NCBI GenBank assembly: GCA_039621445.1
Contig: CP154954.1
Span: forward strand, 29,096,338-29,116,337
DNA length: 20,000 nt
Source of the DNA: Euglena gracilis
Lineage: Eukaryota
Direction: 5' to 3'
Position numbers and translations under genes: made by a program. A model generated the notes under the pieces. That model searched no databases. It saw only the letters and a list, made by a program, of their open reading frames with translations, and had not been told where the DNA came from. Of the stretch, positions 2,100 through 19,921 are shown piece after piece. Numbering within the stretch: position 1 is the first letter of the stretch; every line of letters starts with the position of its first letter.

Positions 2100-4900
2100 G
2101 TGGGTCGAAAAAATGGAAATTAATCCCTTTGCCATCCACCCGCAAATACCCGTTCACTTGGAGAAAATGGGACCAAGGCGCAGAATTTCCTTGGTTGGGG
2201 TACCCAACGGGGTCCCACCCACGCGAACGCAACGCTCAACAATCCGGCACAGGCAATCACCCACACCGCTGGGCAAACCAGCACATCGCTTGTTGGTCCC
2301 CCAAAGACGTACCAATTTCAACACATGGGCATTTTCACAGATTTTTCGGTGCCCACTTTTTGTTTGGATTTTCCCCAAACATCCCGGTCCCTGCAGGTTG
2401 CGCATCCTAATCAACCGTCCACGTTGAGGCACAGGACCCCTGCCGACTGGAAGAACGCTCGCTGGGCATCGAACTGCTGGCAGCGGCCGGCTGAAGCCAT
2501 CGGTCCACAGGTTACTTTGTCTGGGCACAACCCCGCCCCACCTCCTCCTGATTGACAACTGCCCACGACCCCCTCCCAGCCAGGTTATTGCTTAAGGACC
2601 CCGAGGGGGTCCACTGGCTAGCCATTTTACAACACACTAAAAAAAAAATGGACCAGACCCCCCCTCCTGGCTCGAGGGAAGAGGACACCTCCGGGGTCCC
2701 CTCCTGACTGGAAAAAAAATTGCCACCCAAAAGAGTGCGACCTGCATCATTTGTTGATGTTGTGACCCAGGGAACAGGCCCAATTTTGATGATTTTTCAG
2801 GCTGTGCACTAGGCTTGAAAAAAAGTTCAAACCTCTGGGTTTCAACTCTGGGAGACGCGAATTTCCCCCCAAAAAGGGCCAAAACCCCCGTTGTGAATGG
2901 AACAGGCTTCTTTTTACCAACCCGGGGGGAGGGGGGTGCCTTGCGCTCTGGGGTGCCTGCCCATAGTAGGCACCCCATGGGGGGGGGTCGGTTTCGGCCC
3001 CCGGTGCCTGTTGACCCAGCCAATTTTCCTTTGAAAATGGCCCATTTCCGGGCCCCGGTGCCTTCGGATTGCACCACCCACCCAAAATCCTACCCCCCCC
3101 CCCCCCGCTGGGACCTCGGGGGGTCGAAAATACCCCCCCCCCCCCCGCCTGCCCATAGCCCCCCCAGAGGGGGGGGGGGGAGGGTGCGCATTTCCTAAAA
3201 AAGAAGCCTGGATTTTTGAAACCCAACAAACCTCCACCCTTCTCATCGAATACATCAAAAAACTCCCCGAATAGTTCGTAATTGTTCAGGGGGCAAATGT
3301 GGTTCCGCCCCCCGACGAAAGAACATCGGAAATGCCAGTGTGTTCCCTCCACAGGCGGCCACATGGCCGGGTCTGGGAGCTGCTGGCACAGACGGGGTTG
3401 CCCACCACGGCGCAGAGGTCATACCGGGCAGGCCGGGGAATGGGCCAGTGCTCCACCGCCCAGCCGCTGCGCAGAACTGTGGGTTCGCCGTCCAATGCAA
3501 CACGGAATGCACACGGGCACTGCATGGACGAAAGGACACACGTTTGGGCAGAGGTGCCTTTGGAGACGGCCAAGGTGCATCACGTTGATCCCTTTGACCA
3601 TAATTCGGGCTTGGGCGAACGACACGTGTATTACAAAGGGATCGGACGTTTCCGAATGATCATCACGCCGCTCTTCCTGGAATCGAAGCATCATTGCCAT
3701 TCCATTTGGGCAGTCGGCACAACTCTGCAAAAATGGAAACAGGCAGACCGGGACGCCAAATTGGGTTCTTGTGGCCTAAATTCCAAAGTGGTGCCTCTTC
3801 CACCTTGTCCAAGACACGCCAATTTTCAGGGATGGGAGCCTTAGAGCACACAAACGAAGTTGTGTTTACTTGCGCAAATGCGCGCATCAACACACATCAG
3901 TTGTGCGATACCATCTCCTCCTCCGTGACAGCTGGTGAACGCAACTCCTCACGCCAACCATTGGTTTGCATCACGATTACATGGTGATGAAATTTGTGGG
4001 GTCGTTGATATGGGGGGGTGCCAACACCACCACAATTCAATCAAAAAACCTCAGGTGGATTTCCAGAAAATTGTTGACACAGGGGGTGTCTCAACGACAC
4101 GGTGTGTCTTGGACAATACCGAAAGGTGACTTGGGGGTCTCTCACACTTTTTTCTCAAAGAACAATTGAAAGCCGAGAAGGAAACTCCTTGAGCACTGCC
4201 CCAGCCCAAAATCTTCCAGCGAAAGCCCAAGGTCACTGAGGACGCTGTCAGGGTGGGACAAACCACCTTGAGCCAGAACCACCAACCACCTTTTGGCAGA
4301 AATTCTGATGAAATCATTCTTCAATACAAAAATCGGTGAATTGATGTTCTCAAGAGATAAATCACACAAAATGATATCACCCGTTCAAAGAATACCGAAC
4401 AATGATGCTGAAAAGCACAAATCAACAGAAAAATAGCAGAAAAATCCTTCATGTGGTTTCTAATCAGAACATCCAAAAAATCAGACTTTTGGCACTTTGT
4501 CTTGGTGGCGGTTGTAGTTTCTTTTGTTGACATCTGGAAAGACATCGATGAGAGCTTAAAAAGCAGAATCCGCAACATCACAAACCCACGTCCTCCCCAA
4601 ATAGTTGTGGTGGCAAGTTGGGCACAATGCGAGGGGGTGGCAACCAGAGGGGTGGGGGTGAGCCCCACTCATTTCTGAGGGGTCCAGACTCAACCAGAGG
4701 CAAAATCATCAATATGTATCCACATGCAAAGAACCGTCTCTGTGTTGGGGTTCAACAACACAGAGTCAATTCTTTGCCTCTGGATACACATTGTTGAATT
4801 TATGCTGACACCCCCCGATGGAAACGCAGAGCCGCTACAGGCTTAGTGCCAATACAAAGCCGCACGCTTCCGATACCCAAAGCACGCCCGCACTTCAATT
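2100..4900 (-). pseudogene. Degenerate hAT-family transposase remnant, interrupted by MITE insertion(s) at about 2580-3210
   Basis: Motifs in the correct order across frameshifts and stops: CF(Q)H (CxxH, ~4410), IVQDTPCR*DT (cf. QDV.TRWNS, ~4090-4118), VTEEE...LMRAF (~3915), MAMML-DSR (cf. LDPR, ~3680-3700), VL(N)WY...VERC...G...RLGP (cf. hAT dimerisation domain, ~2320-2170). No termini found. Confidence 0.6.
2903..3210. mobile_element. MITE family 1, copy 1 (TIR CAGGCTTCT...AGAAGCCTG)
   Basis: Terminal inverted repeat; internal GGTGCCTGCCCATAG shared with 19482-19921. TSD not recognisable. Confidence 0.75.
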
Positions 4901-5206
4901 AAATTAGGGGGTGGGGCCTGCACAACCTCCTCAAAGGCGCTGGCTTCCAATGCCCCAAAAAATTTGACGGGACACCACAGCACGGGTCTGGGGTGGTGGC
5001 TGGCATGGACGGGGTTGGCGCAGTCCCGCCCTGGGGGCGGGAGAGGTCTGGCGTGGGGCCGGCGCTGCTGGGGCACAGCAGGGCCGGGTCCGCCCCCGTC
5101 AACTCTGCCACGGCGCGCGCGTAGCGGAAGAGGCAATTCTCAGCGAGGTAGCGGTGCCGCCACCGCCCCACCGCCCACAGCTGCTGCAGCGCCGGGCGAC
5201 TCGACA
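4899..5206 (-). CDS. Probable last visible exon of gene B (SSRPALQQLWAVGRWRHRYLAENCLFRYARAVAELTGADPALLC...)
   Basis: ccag acceptor (AG 5208-07); GC-rich coding-like frame to about 5010; first in-frame stop ends at 4899. The true end is uncertain. Confidence 0.5.
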
Positions 5207-6039
5207 CTGGCCGAAGGGGCCCCAGATCACACCCGCTCTGCCCCCAGCCACCCACCAAAACCCACTTCCCCCCTCATCTGACAGGTTGCAAGTACTGGGG
5301 ATCCCTGGCAAGCTCTCAAATGTGACACACACACACACAATTGGGATTGGTGTTGGGCCACGCCTCAGGCGAAGGAGTCGCGGAGGCTTCACGACGTGCC
5401 ATCCGGGGGCACAGGGCACTTGAAAACGGAGAACAACCGCAAATACGGCGCGAAGACTGCCGCATTCACACTTTGAAACGGGCCAAGCAAGCAGCCGAAG
5501 TGGCCGGTACCAACCCTGGGAGCCTTCGGCGGCCCTTAAGGAAATCAAAAAAAAACGGGTCAACTTCGGGATAAAAAAAGTGATTTCTGGCATCTTTGGA
5601 CTGTCACCCATTTGCCCAAAACGTCAACAAAAAATTTTTTTTGGCCTCCCATCCCGGCGGACCACCCTGCCTGGGAGAGGCTGGAACTGTGGGGCTGGGG
5701 GAGAATCGGTGTTCCTGGATCCCTGCTGCAGATTGAGTCCCGAAGGACCTTGCAAGTGAACCAGGGGGTCTGACGGATCAAGAAGGCAATCCCCAACAAA
5801 GAAAGTTATGGCAGGAAAACCTGATTGCAACACACCTTAGCGCTTGGGTGTCCATCTGTCTGTATGTGAAGTATTCTCCCTGCTTTGGAGCTGGGCGGGA
5901 CTCACGGGTGGATGGGAAGACCCTTGCGAAGCGCCGGCGGCTGGCTGCACATCCATTCCAATCCATTCACTGGCTGGGACAACGCAAACAGGCAGGTCCA
6001 CACGCTTGAGTCTTCGCGAGCCACGCACATGCAGTCCGG

Positions 6040-6404
6040 CGTGTGCACACATGCACATGGGAGTGTGCCGTCAGCCACTGCCGGGCCGGGGAGATGGGTG
6101 GGGGGCCCGCGTCCGTCAGCCAGTCATCGGCGCAAACGAAGACGGAGGGCGCGTCGCCCGATGGCCGGATGGAGTTGACGACGGCTCGACAGCCCCTGGC
6201 TGTCGTGCAGGACGACTCCCCCTCACGTCGACGTTCCCAAAAACGTGAATTCCGGCGCCGAGCCCGACCGTGTCAACTTCGGTGGGGAGGAGAGGGGACA
6301 GAGGTTGGCAGCCCCCGCGATGTGGAATGGGATGGAGGTCGGGATGCAGACAGGGGCCGCGCGGCGTGGGGGTCGAAAAGCCCGCCGGCGAGCACCACCA
6401 CCCG
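6040..6404 (-). CDS. Probable gene B exon(s), HAD-like region with several frameshifts (RVVVLAGGLFD ... GIHVFGNVDV/GVVLHDSQG/AVVNSIRPSGDAPSVFVCADDW)
   Basis: Coding-like segments in alternating frames. VVVL-AGG-LFD resembles HAD motif I (hhhDxGGVLhD) but lacks the Asp; VFVCADD resembles motif IV. Inference only. Confidence 0.45.
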
Positions 6405-6748
6405 CTGCAGCGGGGAGGACGTTGCCGTGGGGGCTCCGGCTGGGTTGGAGTGTGGGGGTGGCACTGCGATTCCGGAATGGCCCCGACCACAACCTTGGGA
6501 ACTGGACACTGCTCCTCAACTTGCCCAAGGCGAAGGCCAGAGGATGCAGGACGGACTAAGCCAGTTGGTGAATGGCTTGCACAGATATCAAATCGTCAGC
6601 CCTCTGAAACACACAAAAAAACTGGTTTCAAATGTCCTGCTGGCACCAACAAGGAAAAGCGAAGGCGAACGCAGACTGCACCGGAGATCCCGACCCCCAG
6701 GAACAGGGGGTTGGTCTTCGGCCCCTTCGCGGGCCCCCGGCGCTGCCC

Positions 6749-6914
6749 GCGGGATGGCGAGGCGCTCCGCCTCCGGGATGCGGGCCAGGATGTGGCGGGC
6801 CTTCGTGGGGCTGGTGGACACCGCCTGGCCGATGCCGTGGTGGCCGAGCAGCGCCGCCCCGACGTCCCGCAGCTTCGTCAACACGGGGCCTGCCGTGGCC
6901 TGCACGTGCAGCAC
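6749..6914 (-). CDS. Gene B exon (VLHVQATAGPVLTKLRDVGAALLGHHGIGQAVSTSPTKARHILARIPEAERLAIP)
   Basis: Open GC-rich frame within ORF 6588..7058; TKL..V...L...G resembles the helix ending the AAA_28 domain. Confidence 0.75.
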
Positions 6915-7393
6915 GGGGGCAGGCCAGCTCCGGGCCGGGTGGCAGGGCTGGGCCTTGCGGGGTCCTTGCCCGGGGGGGGGGGTGGAATTACACCAGAGTT
7001 GCTCACCCGGCCAGGCGGAGCAACAAAAAGAGTACTGGTGTAAGGGGTACCTGGCCACTCACCACACAGCAAACTGGGCAGAAGCGAAGATAGCGCCGGC
7101 CATAAACAGACAAAAAGTTTTAGTGCAACTGAGGAGGGAGGTTGGTGCGGCAGGGGCTCTCTCGCCACCTCGGCACGGGGTGTGGCGGGGCTCCCTCCTC
7201 CTCCTGGGTCCTCCTCCTCCCTCCTCCTCCTCCTCGGTCTCCGCGCTGCTGCTTCCCGCTGTGGGGATGCCTGGCATGGAAACGCCTGTCACGGATCCCC
7301 CCCCCGGCTGCATCGGCAATGGGTCCTGAGGCACCACCACCTGGTGCGCAGGGTCCTGATGCGGGGGCCGTACGGCATATTGTTGGCCTGGGC
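6915..7393 (-). other. Non-conventional intron of gene B, 479 nt, with canonical euglenid geometry
   Basis: TAC|GCC-CAGGCCAAC ... GCTGGCCTG-CCCCC|GTG: CAG at +4..+6, CTG at -8..-6, 7-bp perfect stem. Splicing yields in-frame AWAHFPYVLHVQATAGPVLTKLRDV, colinear with the TTD14-type AW.GHPY..VIDN...F.TK segment. Confidence 0.8.
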
Positions 7394-7452
7394 GTAGGGG
7401 AAATGGGCCCACGCCGTGCGGATGGCAACGTTCTGGGCGATGGCCTCCTCTG
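7394..7452 (-). CDS. Gene B exon (EEAIAQNVAIRTAWAHFPY)
   Basis: Matches the family pattern EEA...D.....AW..HP. Confidence 0.8.
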
Positions 7453-7703
7453 GAGGGGGTTGGCGCAGAGACCAGCAGGCTCCGGTCCGGTCGCCCCCCC
7501 CCCAACTGCACTGCACCCGCCCAGAGGTTTTTTTTTTAAAGACCCACACCCTGCCTCCGGTGGCATACCCACTCGGCCTGACTTCCGCTGTGGGTGGGCT
7601 CAGCCGGGCACCCACCCACCCCCGGGTCACAAAACATAAAAAAAAAACGCCCACCCTGCTGTGCTGTCCGGAAGGGGGGGGGGCTCGACGGCCCCAACCC
7701 CGG
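7453..7703 (-). other. Paired-end (non-conventional or intermediate) intron of gene B, containing a small MITE-like insert
   Basis: 5' GGGGTTGGGGC (7701-7691) pairs 10/11 with 3' GCGCCAACCCC (7466-7456). No in-phase GT donor. Splicing gives RRET(A/P)EEA. Confidence 0.65.
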
Positions 7704-7806
7704 CGGCAGTCTCCCGGCGGGCGGCGTTGGTGCCCTTCACGCGGTCGTAGAGCTCCTTCGACTGCAGCGCCACCGTGTCGAGGTGGATGACGCACGAGTA
7801 CCGGTT
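7704..7806 (-). CDS. Gene B exon (NRYSCVIHLDTVALQSKELYDRVKGTNAARRETA)
   Basis: RY..VIHL..A and N.AR.ET motifs of TTD14-like proteins, in the expected order. Confidence 0.85.
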
Positions 7807-8159
7807 GCTGCCGGAGGCCGGCGGACGTTCTGCGGAGGACCACAGCGGAGTCACGTTCGGACAAATTTGTTTTTACCGACCCCCTTTTTACCGACCGAGG
7901 GGGGTCTCAAGCCAGTCAGTCACCCTCCTGGGTTAGCCATTGACTAGGTGATTGTTTGGTCATGTTCAATTGGGAGGCGCACGTCCACCACAACCAATCC
8001 AAAAGGATACAATCGCTTGCATCACCCGTGGGGCGTGCGAAAATTCCACTGAACGGTGTGCTCTCTCTCCCATCGACCCCCTCCTGGCAACAATGGTCCC
8101 GACCACTTCCCACCGGGGGGGGGGGGGGGCGGGGGGGGGGCACCCCCGGCCCCCGCCCT

Positions 8160-8323
8160 TTGCCAACGTCGTCCCACGTCATGTCGGCGGAGCGCAGCAG
8201 CGCCTCGTACTCCGCCTCGGAGATGAACGCGCGGGGGTCCAGCAGGCCGCGGTCGAACAGCACCACGACGGGCCGCCCGGTGGCGCGGGCGAACTGCTCC
8301 GCGTAGCGGATGAGGCTGTCCTC
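8160..8323 (-). CDS. Gene B exon (EDSLIRYAEQFARATGRPVVVLFDRGLLDPRAFISEAEYEALLRSADMTWDDVG)
   Basis: hhhhDRG..D..AF motif characteristic of the TTD14/AAA_28 family. Boundaries approximate. Confidence 0.85.
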
Positions 8324-9408
8324 CGAGTGGGGGCACGGCGGCGGCGGGGGAGATGGACGGGTCCAGGAATTGGTCGGGGGAAACACATACATGGAACAAG
8401 CGCAAAAATGCACTGTCTTCACATCTTTTTGCTACAAATCGGGATAATGTATGATGTACATGATATGATGATATCGGGGACTTGCTGACATACGGAAATA
8501 TGGACAGGGGTCCAGGCATACCATATCATCACGCATCAACGAAGCCAGCCGCCACACCACCCTGGTTGCCGCAAAAAATGGAACATCTCTCGCTGCCACA
8601 CCACTCTGCAGGAGGGCAGTCCTCCGCAACAGGAGCCTGACAAGAATCGGGCGGATGCAATGTGCCAGTGGCACCCTGTTGCCATGCTGAGGCAGAGGCG
8701 AAAGGAATCCACCTGGACTTATGCATTGGCGCCGAATGCCCATCCCCGCCCCAATCCCTGGGGTGGTGAGGCGACCGCTGGGGTAGACGTCCGGCAGAAC
8801 CAGAACAAGCAAAGAAAAAAAACGGTACAGGTGGGGAGGAATTGAGAAACACTCTGCTCTTGGTAGGGCGAGTCTATGCGAAGGGCTCCCCTCGACGCAG
8901 GGCCTCGTTGTTGGCGGGGAACTCAGTCCCCTGGCGAGACCACGAGGTGGCCTTCTCGGTGCAATGGGCGGCCTCGCTGCCTGTGCGCCACGAGCCCACT
9001 GGTTGATTGTGGGATCGAAAATGGACGTGTGCCGAATTGCCCGAAAACTAATGCCCAATGCAACTCAGCCTTGGTAAAGGGAGCGACACAAAGAGGCTGT
9101 TAAGGGCAGCGGGAACCAAACAACCATGCATAAAGAAAACCTCCCGCACGCTGAAGGAATTGAACCGAAAATATCAGCACCCCGAGAAACACCGGAAAGG
9201 TGGTGTGCGGGAGGGTGATCGGACCCCCCATACCCACCAGGGTAGGATTTCGGCCCCCCGCAATCCATATGGCCCACACAGCCTGGCCAGGGGGAGGATG
9301 GAAAAAGTGTTCCTCGGAGCCGGGGTGACTTCTCAGTTTCGTTTCCAGGCTTCCAGTGCCATGCGAAGCTTCTCCTTCCAGAGGAGCTGACTGCGCGGGC
9401 GGCCCCAC

Positions 9409-9541
9409 CCCGGAGGCAGCGGGGCGGCGGAACACGGCGTAGCCGTTCTCCTCCAACAGGGTCCGCAGGTACTGCAGGCTGGAGCTCTTGCCCGCTGCGG
9501 GCCCCCCGGTCGGGGGCGGCGGACCACATCGCCGGAACACA
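9409..9541 (-). CDS. Gene B P-loop exon (DVVR..TGGPAAGKSSSLQYLRTLLEENGYAVFR); TTD14/AAA_28-like NTPase
   Basis: Walker A TGGPAAGKS in the context typical of TTD14-like proteins (IVLTGGPCGGKTT...G..VFRVPE). An apparent 1-nt frameshift lies just before TGGP. Confidence 0.8.
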
Positions 9542-10619
9542 CTGCCGGGGGGGGGGGGGCACTCGCACGGTTGAGGAACCCTCTGGCCCGGGTTGACGCC
9601 GGGGCAGAGAGGCGTCATTGTTTCGCATGGATGGGTCCGCGTCAGGCACGCCTGGTCCGCATCTGTCGCGGACCCCGTTTGAAACGTCCGCCAACAGACA
9701 CGAAAGCAGGGAGGCAGCCACTGTCCCCAGACACAGCACCTGGGCACTGGCATGGAAGGGGTGTCTTCAGCGGCTGGGGTTGCTTGCGCGCACGTGCACA
9801 CAATTAGGGGTCTTTGAGGAAAAGGTGTCCGTGTTATGCAGGGGGGTGTTCAAATTTCATTGTGCCTCCACCCTCGATTTTGAAAACGCCCAGCTTTATG
9901 AAAATGGCACTGCAGTCAGTCGGTCTGATTTTGTGAGAAAATGAGAAATGAGTATTCGCACACAAACACACCACACACACCATACACATGTCGAACTGCA
10001 TGTACAAGTGGTTGTGTTGGGTATTATAACAAAAGATTGAAAGAGAATAAGCATCCCGAGATAAGATTGTGGCCCGCCGCTCAAAACCACCAAATGTAGC
10101 CGACCAGTGCAGCTGCTGTTTGATTCTGGCCGCTCCAGCACGGTCACCAGGCTTGCATGCTGACAAGGCCACTGGGCGGCTTGGGGCAAGGGGGCTCTCG
10201 TTTCGTTCGTCCCGTGTCCCAACCATGGAGGTATGGAGGTGAGGTCATGCCAATCTCCCCAAGAACCAACACCTCTAAGCAACAAAATTCTCTTTGAGGA
10301 TCTGGCTTGGCTGGGAGGGGGCCACCCGACCCGACCTCAGGGGGATCAGGGGGACCAAATTATTTAAAGGGGCCTTTTTGGTTCCTACTGTTTTCAAAAT
10401 TGATGAACAGAAAGACTGGAAATGAAATGACACGCCAAATAAGAATACCAATAACATCAGATAAACTCAATCGACAATATCGTGGAATTCCCACGTATGA
10501 AGCGGCAGTGATGCCGACACTTTTTGTTGACTTCGAAGCGGCGGATTCCTCGGCTGCCCTCTTCGCTTCGACCTCCCCTGCCGGAAGGGAGGCTGCTTCA
10601 CCCAGCCCCCCCCCCCCCA

Positions 10620-10780
10620 AGGCGCCTTGCGGGCGGGAGAGCCCCGCGGTGCCGCGGGCCGCCCGGCCAGCGGCCGGCGCGGGGGCCAGGCATCGCCAGG
10701 GGCAGCGCAGGCCCATCAGGGCGCATGGGCCCCACCGCGTAGGGGGGCGGCAGGCACCGCGTCACGGGGCCATGGGGCTG
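10620..10780 (-). CDS. Possible first exon of gene B (Arg/Ala/Gly/Pro-rich, transit-peptide-like, e.g. MGLRCPWRCLAPAPAAGRAARGTAGLSRPQ)
   Basis: GC-rich island. It is followed on the minus strand by G13 (10606-18) that could pair with C13 (9547-59) just before the P-loop exon. Start codon and frame uncertain. Confidence 0.35.
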
Positions 10781-11415
10781 GGGCTGGGCGCGAAAGCAAC
10801 GTGTCCCCGTCTGCCGTCGGCCAACAGCAATGGAAGGGGGGCAAAAAAAACCAAACAAAAGTGTGCGAGAAGAAATTTTTTCAACGAGCAACTGTGTGGG
10901 GCGACAGGCATTCACTGCATTTGACGCACTGTACTTTTGCTTGTCGGGTGGCGGCAAATTATTCAAAAATAATAACAAGATTAAATTATTCTGGAACTGA
11001 GCCTTTCCCCTGTGACGTTTTTGCAAGCATGCAACGTTGGAAAGCACCTCTGAAAAAAAAATAACGAAAATCCCGTGTCTGAGGACCGGAAAAGATGGAT
11101 AAGGACCAAGGGGGGGTTGCTTTGACAAAGGAAAAAACCTTACTCCAAAAAAATCCAGCGCTTCGCGGCGAAAAATATCTGGTTTCTGGGGCTCACTGTT
11201 GAACTTACTGGCACGTGGATGGAAAAAAAATCAACAATATCTCACCAAATCAGACACCAGAAATTTCTGAAATATATAAATTTTCGAGGAATTTATCTTA
11301 AAAATGCAAACAAAATAATAAGCCTCCTGAGAAGATGACCTTCAAATCAGGGTAAAGACCGGGGTGGTGGTGTTTTGACAAGGGTGGTGCTTATTTCCTT
11401 GCTTTAGACAAGAGG

Positions 11416-12149
11416 CAGGGGGGGGGGAAATGCGCCGGACGGCCCTCGGAAAAAATGCGCAAAAATGCGCAAAAAAATGCGCAAAAAATGCGCTGAGTTT
11501 GTGACATTCCTAAGGGAAAAAGGACTTAGAAAAATTTCCAACAATAAACCCAAAATTAAACCAAAATCACCAAAAAGAGCTGAAATGAAGGCATTTTGGC
11601 CAAAAAATGCATGACCAAGGTGTCACTCTCCGTTCACCATAACCAACAATGTCAGCCATGGTGCCCCTTACTTGTGACCAGGGGAGTGGGAGTCCCGCCT
11701 TGGTTACGTGTCAATGTGGGGTCTCTGAAACCCCTAGTGTCCTCATCGTCATTGGATGAGTACCCACACCTCATCACCCAAGGGTTTTCTCTTGAGGCCG
11801 GTCCCTTGGGTGGAAAAAAAGTGCGAAAATGGGTTCGTTGGTTACAGAAATGGGCCAGTTGATCGTGGGCAAAATTCGGTGAGCATGTGATTTGGGTGGA
11901 AAATGTGCAAAAATGGCAAAATGTGCAAAATTGGGCAAAAAAATGCGCAAAAATGCGGAAAATGGCAAAATGTGCAAAATTGGGCAAAAAAATGCGCAAA
12001 AAATGCCCAAAAAATGGAAAATGTGCAAAAAATGGGGGGGGGATGTACAAAAAATGCGCAAAAATGCGCAAAATTTTGAAAAATTGACAAAAATGCGCAA
12101 AAATGCGCAAAAATGCGGAAAAATGCGCAGCGCATTCCCCCCCCCCCTG
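11416..12149. mobile_element. MITE family 2, 734 bp, with subterminal AAAAATGCGC tandem arrays
   Basis: TIR CAG(G)nAAATGCGC / GCGCATT(C)nTG; flanks CAAGAGG / CAAGAGG(G), a 7-8 bp TSD. Confidence 0.85.
11820..12130. repeat. ~10-bp minisatellite (AAAAATGCGC / AAAATGTGC / AAAATTGGGC) inside MITE family 2; shorter array at 11451-11492
   Basis: Directly visible tandem units. They explain the repetitive K/C/A and F/A/H ORFs in the track. Confidence 0.9.
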
Positions 12150-15604: not shown

Positions 15605-16069
15605 ACTTGCTAACCCCCCCAATATTAGGCCCCCCCCCCCCAATGTAAAGCCCCCCGGGGGTTTGGTTTTGCCGCCCAAATATAAAGCCCCCCCCCAAAT
15701 ATAAAGCCCCCCCGGGGGGTTTGGTTTTGCCGCCCAAATATAAAGCCCCCCCCCTGACGCGGAGCCAGACGCTGGTGTCATTCAGGAAAAAGTGGAAAAA
15801 TTTTGGGCAGATACACCATTTTTTTTCCACCAAAAATGCTCCATTTTGGATTAAAAAAATGCACATTTTGTGAAAAATAGGAGGCAAACAGCGAAAATTT
15901 GGCAAAAATTGGTGTTTGGCCACAATTGATGGCCGCTGAAAGTCATAGAGGCCACCCCAAAAAGTTTGATCCCCCCCCCAAATATAAAGCCCCCCCCCTG
16001 AGGGTGTTGAAATCCCGTCCGAATATAAAGCCGGGGGGGGGGCTTTATATTTGGGGGGGTTTATCACGC
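15605..16069. mobile_element. Fold-back MITE-like element built from AAATATAAAGCCCCCC units, inside a gene A intron
   Basis: At least five direct copies (15677-16033), an inverted copy GGCTTTATATTT (16041-52), and imperfectly inverted ends. Confidence 0.7.
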
Positions 16070-19010: not shown

Positions 19011-19320
19011 TAATAGAATAAATTATAATTGAATTCAAAAATTAAACAAACAATAATATAAACAAATAATAATATAAATATAAACAATACAAATACAAAC
19101 ATAAACATAAAATAATAATATAAACATAAATATAAATATAACATAACATAAATAACACAAACATATAAACATAAACATAAACAATAATACAAATATAAAC
19201 AATAATATAAATGATGTAACATACATATATGTATATATATGTATACGACATGAATTAGCATATAATATAATGTATGATAATATAATAGATGATGCATCAA
19301 TATGGAAAATAGACCTAATT
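19011..19320. repeat. AT-rich low-complexity tract, degenerate (ATAAAC/ATA)n
   Basis: Abrupt shift to near-pure A/T with occasional C between GC-rich flanks. Confidence 0.9.
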
Positions 19321-19481: not shown

Positions 19482-19921
19482 CAGGCTTCTTCTTCTTCTT
19501 ACCAACCCCCGGGGGTGCCTTGTGCTTTGGGGTGCCTGCCCCAGGCCGTTTTTTGTATCAACCGCCGGGGGGGGGATCCGGAGTGCCTGTGAGTGCCTAC
19601 CCAGGCAGGCACCCCCCCCCCCCCCGGAGGGGGTCGGATTTCGGCCTGTGCCCAGGCGCATTCCTGTGAAAATACGCCATTTTTGGCTCCTTCGGCGCCG
19701 GGGTCTGTGCCAGGGCACTTTTGGCCGTGTGCCCTACCCCCCCACCCCGGCCCGGGGGTACCCCCCGGGGGGGGTCAGATTGGGAGTGCCTTGGAGTGCC
19801 TGTCCAGGCAGGCCCCCCCCCCCCTGGGGTGGGGTCGGCACCCGACTAAAATACAGCCCTGGTGCCTGCCCATAGCAGGCGCCCCTCCAGGGGGGTGCGA
19901 CTTTCCTTAAACAGAAGCCTG
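19482..19921. mobile_element. MITE family 1, copy 2, 440 bp, with 8-bp TSD
   Basis: TIR CAGGCTTCT/AGAAGCCTG; flanks AGCAGAGC / GGCAGAGC (7/8); internal repeats GTGCCTG...CCAGGC. Confidence 0.85.

Follow-up and report, generated by a model that had tools for sequence, protein, structure and literature searches.

The nonconventional (NC) introns of euglenids (Milanowski et al. 2014, 2016; PNAS 2025, PMC12501133) lack GT-AG borders, and the splicing code reported for them in PMC12501133, which was set by mutagenesis and with synthetic introns in Euglena, consists of the triplets CAG, preceded by a spacer of 3 nt, and CTG, followed by one of 5 nt, and of a purine as the first base of the downstream exon. 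The junctions conform to a pyrimidine|purine (Y|R) pattern in 49-55 of the 55 introns considered in PMC4770533, where the spacer positions +2 and +3 are described as evolving freely, and slidable junctions account for 84.4% of the introns of E. agilis (PMC12501133). Circular intron products have been reported for NC introns (cited in PMC11282704), and a MITE-like origin of the class has already been proposed (PMC3935182, PMC12501133).

We describe here one intron of this kind, the eighth of a gene on the minus strand of a 20,000-nucleotide stretch of Euglena gracilis DNA (the window). A preliminary description, made from the letters alone, had called it as a nonconventional intron and had read its flanks as a fossil 8-bp target-site duplication (TSD). 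We find that intron 8 is very probably an ordinary euglenid NC intron in a Euglena P-loop NTPase (AAA_28) gene, with no detectable TSD, and that the likeness of its flanks comes from the Y|R preference and from C-rich sequence.

The junction of intron 8 and its splicing code

Intron 8 is 479 nt long (6915..7393, minus strand), as defined by the RNA joint 6913->7393 and by the protein-level junction in the transcriptome protein P0002. It separates exon 8 (7394..7450, minus strand, 57 nt), which encodes EEAIAQNVAIRTAWAHFPY, from exon 9 (6742..6914, minus strand, 173 nt), which starts VLHVQATAGPVLTKL; both exons were placed by tblastn with P0002 and by junction reconstruction. The minus-strand layout is ...TTCCCCTAC GCC CAGGCCA ... 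TGGCCTG CCCCC GTGCTGCAC..., so that in its middle register the intron starts GCC-CAG, ends CTG-CCCCC, and the next exon opens with G. The 5' spacer GCC (7391..7393) spans the 3 nt from the splice site to CAG, in agreement with the spacer rule of PMC12501133, and is followed by the 5' stem arm CAGGCCA (7384..7390), with CAG at +4..+6. At the other end the 3' stem arm TGGCCTG (6920..6926), with CTG at -8..-6, is followed by the 5-nt spacer CCCCC (6915..6919) and then by the first base of the exon, the purine G at 6914. The boundary is slidable by ±1 nt owing to a shared CG (7392..6914, 7393..6915 or 7394..6916), and across the three registers the borders are GC..CC, CC..CG or CG..CC, none of them GT/AG. 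Both junctions are of the Y|R type, each reading C|G (7394|7393 and 6915|6914). The letters and minus-strand coordinates given in the preliminary description all proved correct.

We mapped RNA and DNA runs on the whole window, these being raw RNA reads (X21 and X24), probable RNA contigs (X1) and DNA contigs (X20). The joint 6913->7393, which skips 479 nt and leaves 2 nt that fit either side, is present in 21 reads with 18 start points in X21, in 6 reads with 5 start points in X24, and in one contig in X1 (depth 157.8), and in none of the contigs of X20, a run in which we also found no intron-less form of the locus. The RNA-joined sequence is exactly the predicted TTCCCCTACGTGCTGCAC, and the RNA-seq check proposed for the junction TTCCCCTAC|GTGCTGCAC thus returns 27 raw reads and one contig that carry it; the same junction is found in P0002 (AWAHFPY|VLHVQ; ...AWAHFPYVLHVQ...). 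Other X1 joints at the depth of 157.8 are 6423->6742, 7449->7704, 8327->8567 and 9509->10081. No back-joint of intron 8, corresponding to a circular form, is among the 15 joints listed of 620, and rare or minor isoforms may exist beyond these.

Conventional removal, using a GT at 7340 and an AG at 6901-6900 or some other GT/GC-AG pair, would keep AQANNMPYG in the protein, and this was the alternative against which the preliminary description had set its own reading. GT and AG dinucleotides do occur at the named sites, and 52 in-frame, stop-free GT/GC-AG combinations are possible nearby; however, use of the named pair would lead, out of frame, to a stop, neither it nor any other such joint appears among those listed, where the NC joint has its 27 raw reads and one contig, P0002 is without AQANNMPYG, and the homologue profile described below does not align to the read-through residues. 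Conventional splicing of this segment is therefore scarcely conceivable.

Intron 8 and its stem exceed what would be expected by chance. CAG at 7390-7388 pairs with CTG at 6922-6920, forming complementary triplets at +4..+6 and -8..-6, and the 7-bp stem CAGGCCA/TGGCCTG is 100% complementary, as had been stated from the letters. From composition, the probability by chance that one of the three allowed registers has both CAG at +4..+6 and CTG at -8..-6 is ~9e-4, and that of four further complementary pairs beside them is ~0.004. The minimum-energy fold of the whole intron is without the terminal stem and is no stabler than that of shuffles (z=0.19), and the end-to-end duplex of -19.4 kcal/mol is equalled or bettered by 96 of 210 chimeric pairs. 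Because the duplex energy is unexceptional and the stem is missing from the global fold, the stem is convincing by its register and not by its energy. Together, the RNA joint, the code geometry and the stem bear out the call of a nonconventional intron.

We suggest that in the pre-mRNA the two ends of intron 8 would pair via CAGGCCA/TGGCCUG, and that the NC splicing machinery would cut 3 nt upstream of CAG and 5 nt downstream of CUG, before a purine, and join ...UUCCCCUAC to GUGCUGCAC...; the excised intron would presumably be circular, as the literature reports for the class.

The host gene and the repeats around its exons

The coding region of the host gene extends over 2411..10716 (minus strand), and tblastn and reconstruction resolve it into 15 exons and 14 introns, none of the latter being GT/GC-AG, that encode a 445-aa AAA_28 P-loop protein. 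Exon translation matched two proteins, one of which is EukProt EG_transcript_8976 (P0002, 445 aa, Pfam AAA_28), and the reconstructed spliced CDS is open for 445 codons, with 438 of 445 residues identical to P0002. The match of P0002 to PF13521 (AAA_28) has E=2.5e-12 over residues 53-232, and the protein contains the Walker A motif TGGPAAGKS. Pfam searches with single-exon translations of the gene gave no match, and a word-based homologue search with P0002 returned only P0002 itself; an exhaustive search with P0002 yielded 2,460 matches at E<=0.001, from which a profile was built with 148 relatives. This profile aligns residues 38-276 of P0002 in one piece and is gapless across the intron 8 junction at residues 228/229 (...aWlghpnlrvidns... 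against ...AWAHFPYVLHVQAT...), and in the read-through (unspliced) frame the alignment ends at FPYA. The colinearity that splicing had been expected to restore is thus seen at the protein level. The accompanying 'TTD14-like' label probably reflects only the common P-loop domain; according to PMC4624897, TTD14 combines a P-loop with CYTH, and a Pfam search of P0002 at E<=0.01 found no CYTH domain.

There are 7 amino-acid differences between the host protein and EG_transcript_8976, and the window differs by single bases from most RNA and DNA reads at 7740, 3392, 3394, 2031 and 1948. Both the base and the amino-acid differences point to allelic or strain variation.

Neither the 14 coding introns nor the intron in the 3'-UTR (2077-2406) have GT/GC-AG ends in any protein-compatible register, and the wider interest of the locus is that every intron of one 15-exon Euglena gene is nonconventional. 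Ten of the 14 coding introns fit the 3-nt/5-nt geometry with complementary triplets, which are CAG/CTG, CGG/CCG, GGG/CCC, GAG/CTC and GCC/GGC, with CAG/GTG and CAT/CTG as partial cases. In introns 1, 10, 11 and 13 the terminal stems lie at different offsets. When all 15 introns are taken together, their own ends pair with a mean of -26.7 kcal/mol versus -19.1 kcal/mol for chimeric ends, and 0 of 50,000 permutations are as good.

A fragment of a high-copy dispersed repeat is nested within intron 8 (6983..7139, unstranded), as indicated by X20 depth and by loose ends. The X20 depth is 174,489 in the bin 6671-7337 versus 84 and 312 in the adjacent bins, and many contigs and reads break off inside the intron at 6983, 7051, 7079, 7134 and 7139. 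The fragment is ~150 nt long and lies 68 nt away from the intron's 3' end and ~250 nt from its 5' end, so that high copy number in the DNA run is confined to the interior 6983-7139, and the intron ends with their terminal stems are outside the repeat. The repeat is also abundant in RNA reads. Since its flanking consensus is kept in other copies (with loose-end agreement up to 0.97), the copy in intron 8 is a truncated piece. We found no second copy either of intron 8 or of the nested repeat in the 20-kb window, and there is no Rfam match to the whole window at gathering scores or to 6850-7450 at E<=1. Outside its exons the window is repeat-rich, with further repeated or very high-depth segments at 11340-12130, 15690-16030, 19036-19204 and 1-1334, tandem-like 40-120-nt repeats at ~11450-12128, and an X20 depth of >300,000 in the bin 11340-12006.

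The flanking octamers of intron 8

The claimed left and right copies of the TSD are the upstream octamer CCTACGCC (7398-7391, minus strand) and the downstream octamer CCCCCGTG (6919-6912, minus strand). These match at 4 of 8 positions (1, 2, 5 and 6), of which the matches at 5 and 6 fall on the junction consensus C|G, and those at 1 and 2 are CC versus CC in a C-rich context. Matches at 4 or more of 8 positions occur with a probability of 0.14 in equally spaced octamer pairs across the whole window (n=19,493), of 0.18 in such pairs from the local GC-rich neighbourhood (n=2,511), and of 0.37 (33/90) in chimeric left/right flank pairs from the 10 code-conforming introns of the host gene. The octamer likeness of the intron 8 flanks is no greater than chance, and the fossil 8-bp TSD is not supported, the 4/8 match being at the level of chance plus junction consensus. 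A more general lesson is that 'TSD-like' repeats arise from the junction consensus by itself, and that chimeric junction controls are therefore needed when flank similarity is assessed.

The argument for decay had been that each flank equals the spliced octamer CCTACGTG except at two positions, with the differences all in the intronic half. The first part is arithmetically the same as the 4/8 match between the flanks. The second is true, but the spliced octamer takes its first 5 nt from the exonic side of the left flank and its last 3 nt from the exonic side of the right flank, and being built from exonic halves it confines the differences to the intronic half by construction.

The other introns of the gene show no excess similarity either. 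In the 10 code-conforming introns 30 of 80 positions (3.0/8) agree between the two flanks of the same intron, versus 3.06/8 for chimeric flanks (permutation p=0.59), and 19 of 60 agree when positions 5 and 6 are left out (p=0.60); junction sliding amounts to 1.5 nt versus 1.68 nt for chimeric junctions in these 10 (p=0.66) and to 2.0 versus 1.58 nt in all 15 introns (p=0.12), and with 10-15 introns this ensemble test rules out a strong or moderate TSD signal, not a weak one. Intron 11 (5194-6087) has an in-register 6-nt exact repeat, CCCGGC (7/8), at its junctions, which makes seven splice positions equivalent. We discarded this repeat as a potentially better TSD candidate, as a maximum of at least 6 is reached in 35% of permutations (p=0.35).

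The flanks of intron 8 accordingly keep no detectable trace of a TSD, and they speak neither for nor against a transposon origin long ago; as spacer positions +2 and +3 evolve freely (PMC4770533), an old TSD would have been erased anyway. The 2-nt CG repeat at the junction could alternatively be the scar of intron gain by double-strand-break repair and not by transposition, which is what the authors of PMC4770533 propose for a recently gained gapC intron. Slidable junctions are very common, as the figure for E. agilis attests (PMC12501133), but 43% of the chimeric junction pairs in our data also have repeats of at least 2 nt, which places that of intron 8 at the chimeric level, and no feature particular to this intron indicates repair. 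We regard a repair scar as very unlikely. If intron 8 is an ordinary NC intron, as we prefer, the preference for pyrimidine|purine, seen as C|G at each of the two junctions, would give rise to the 2-nt slidable CG, and the C-rich sequence to the match of CC with CC between the flanks.

A MITE-like family in the window and comparison with known systems

A scan of the window yielded 85 CAG...CTG pairs that lie 40-2500 nt from each other and have a perfect inverted repeat of at least 7 bp, and only one of these has more than 5/8 flank matches; this is the pair at 19482-19921, whose flanks are AGCAGAGC and GGCAGAGC (7/8). The 9-nt terminus CAGGCTTCT has exactly four occurrences in the window, arranged as two inverted pairs that define a copy of 440 bp at 19482-19921, with 8-nt flanks 7/8 identical, and a copy of 308 bp at 2903-3210, within intron 14, with 8-nt flanks 3/8 identical. 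The 9-bp inverted termini (CAGGCTTCT/AGAAGCCTG) are identical in the two, the subterminal parts are conserved, and the G/C-tract interior is variable; the X20 DNA depth is very high in the bins of either copy. The two copies constitute a MITE-like family. A binomial estimate from the mean match rate of the scan puts the chance of one 7/8 flank at ~0.06 among 85 pairs, and at ~0.0015 among two true copies. On the minus strand the first copy reads GCTCT|GCC-CAG...CTG-GCTCT|GCT and so contains every element of the NC code, with Y|R at each cut. When metagenomes were scanned for the terminus, 12 loci came up, which we rejected as chance matches, none having the right-hand terminus and none BLAST similarity. 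The family leaves the general 8-bp idea alive and has no bearing on intron 8.

Applied to intron 8 itself, that idea would derive the intron from a MITE-like DNA transposon with CAG...CTG termini that generated an 8-bp TSD, CCTACGTG, with splicing removing the element plus one duplicate and the intronic halves having since decayed. The spacers add up to the 3 + 5 = 8 nt needed for seamless removal with an 8-bp TSD (code: PMC12501133), the one NC intron whose recent gain is documented carries direct repeats of eight nucleotides at its junction (PMC4770533), and a review speaks of TSD-like repeats at the junctions of NC introns (PMC11282704). E. gracilis Merlin transposons, moreover, make 8-bp TSDs (PMC8101967), and the window has its own family with CAGGCTTCT termini, although of its two copies the one with 7/8 flanks is accompanied by another with only 3/8. 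At intron 8, however, the 4/8 flank match is at chance level (0.14-0.37) with two of the matches accounted for by the consensus C|G, own flanks in the host gene match no better than chimeric pairs, the window contains no other copy of the intron, and the X20 repeats cover only the interior 6983-7139 and not the ends. Such an origin for intron 8 is, we think, quite improbable, and its reading as an ordinary NC intron stands.

As an idea about the class as a whole, we suggest only tentatively, and consider it rather unlikely, that NC introns may descend from MITE-like DNA transposons with CAG inverted termini and 8-bp TSDs, the fixed 3-nt and 5-nt offsets serving to remove the element plus one duplicate and thereby restoring the frame; the CAGGCTTCT family would then be a candidate source, and intron 8 an old member whose duplication has decayed. 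In the literature outside subscription journals we found no paper that connects the 3+5-nt geometry or NC introns with an 8-bp TSD, with hAT or with a CAG-terminated MITE family named in Euglena. If true genome-wide, the idea would explain the origin of NC introns as well as the asymmetry of the splicing code, and CAG-terminated MITEs might be ready-made NC introns; one gene does not settle the wider idea.

Several other systems invite comparison. Bulge-helix-bulge introns are cut by the tRNA splicing endonuclease at fixed distances from a helix, and the NC cuts, likewise at fixed distances from a helix, may be analogous to these, the circular products reported for the class (PMC11282704) being a further point of likeness; we know of no enzyme linked to NC introns. 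Transposons of the hAT type have 8-bp TSDs and CAG-type termini. Like the DNA transposons with 8-bp TSDs (hAT and Merlin), intron 8 has CAG...CTG termini and an 8-nt spacer sum, but unlike them it is without a transposase, without further copies in the window and without a significant TSD, and Merlin termini, as described in PMC8101967, end in GG, not CAG. The notion of splicing out an element together with one TSD copy is shared with introner elements and MITE-derived introns (Micromonas, Amoebophrya, Fritillaria; PMC11282704); introns of these kinds, however, have many near-identical copies and clear TSDs, whereas the ends of intron 8 are single-copy in our data and its flanks have no significant repeat.

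The closest relatives are the euglenid NC introns with which we began. Like these, intron 8 is non-GT-AG, places CAG (+4..+6) 3 nt after its start and CTG (-8..-6) 5 nt before its end, has a purine at intron +1 and exon +1 and a pyrimidine at exon -1 and intron -1, is made slidable at its junction by a short direct repeat, and resides in a Euglena host. The downstream exon has T and G at positions 2 and 3, where A and C are commoner, and few introns of the gene have a terminal duplex as weak. Taken alone, intron 8 is a textbook case of a known intron class and carries little weight by itself, and from the euglenid NC introns it differs in nothing of substance.
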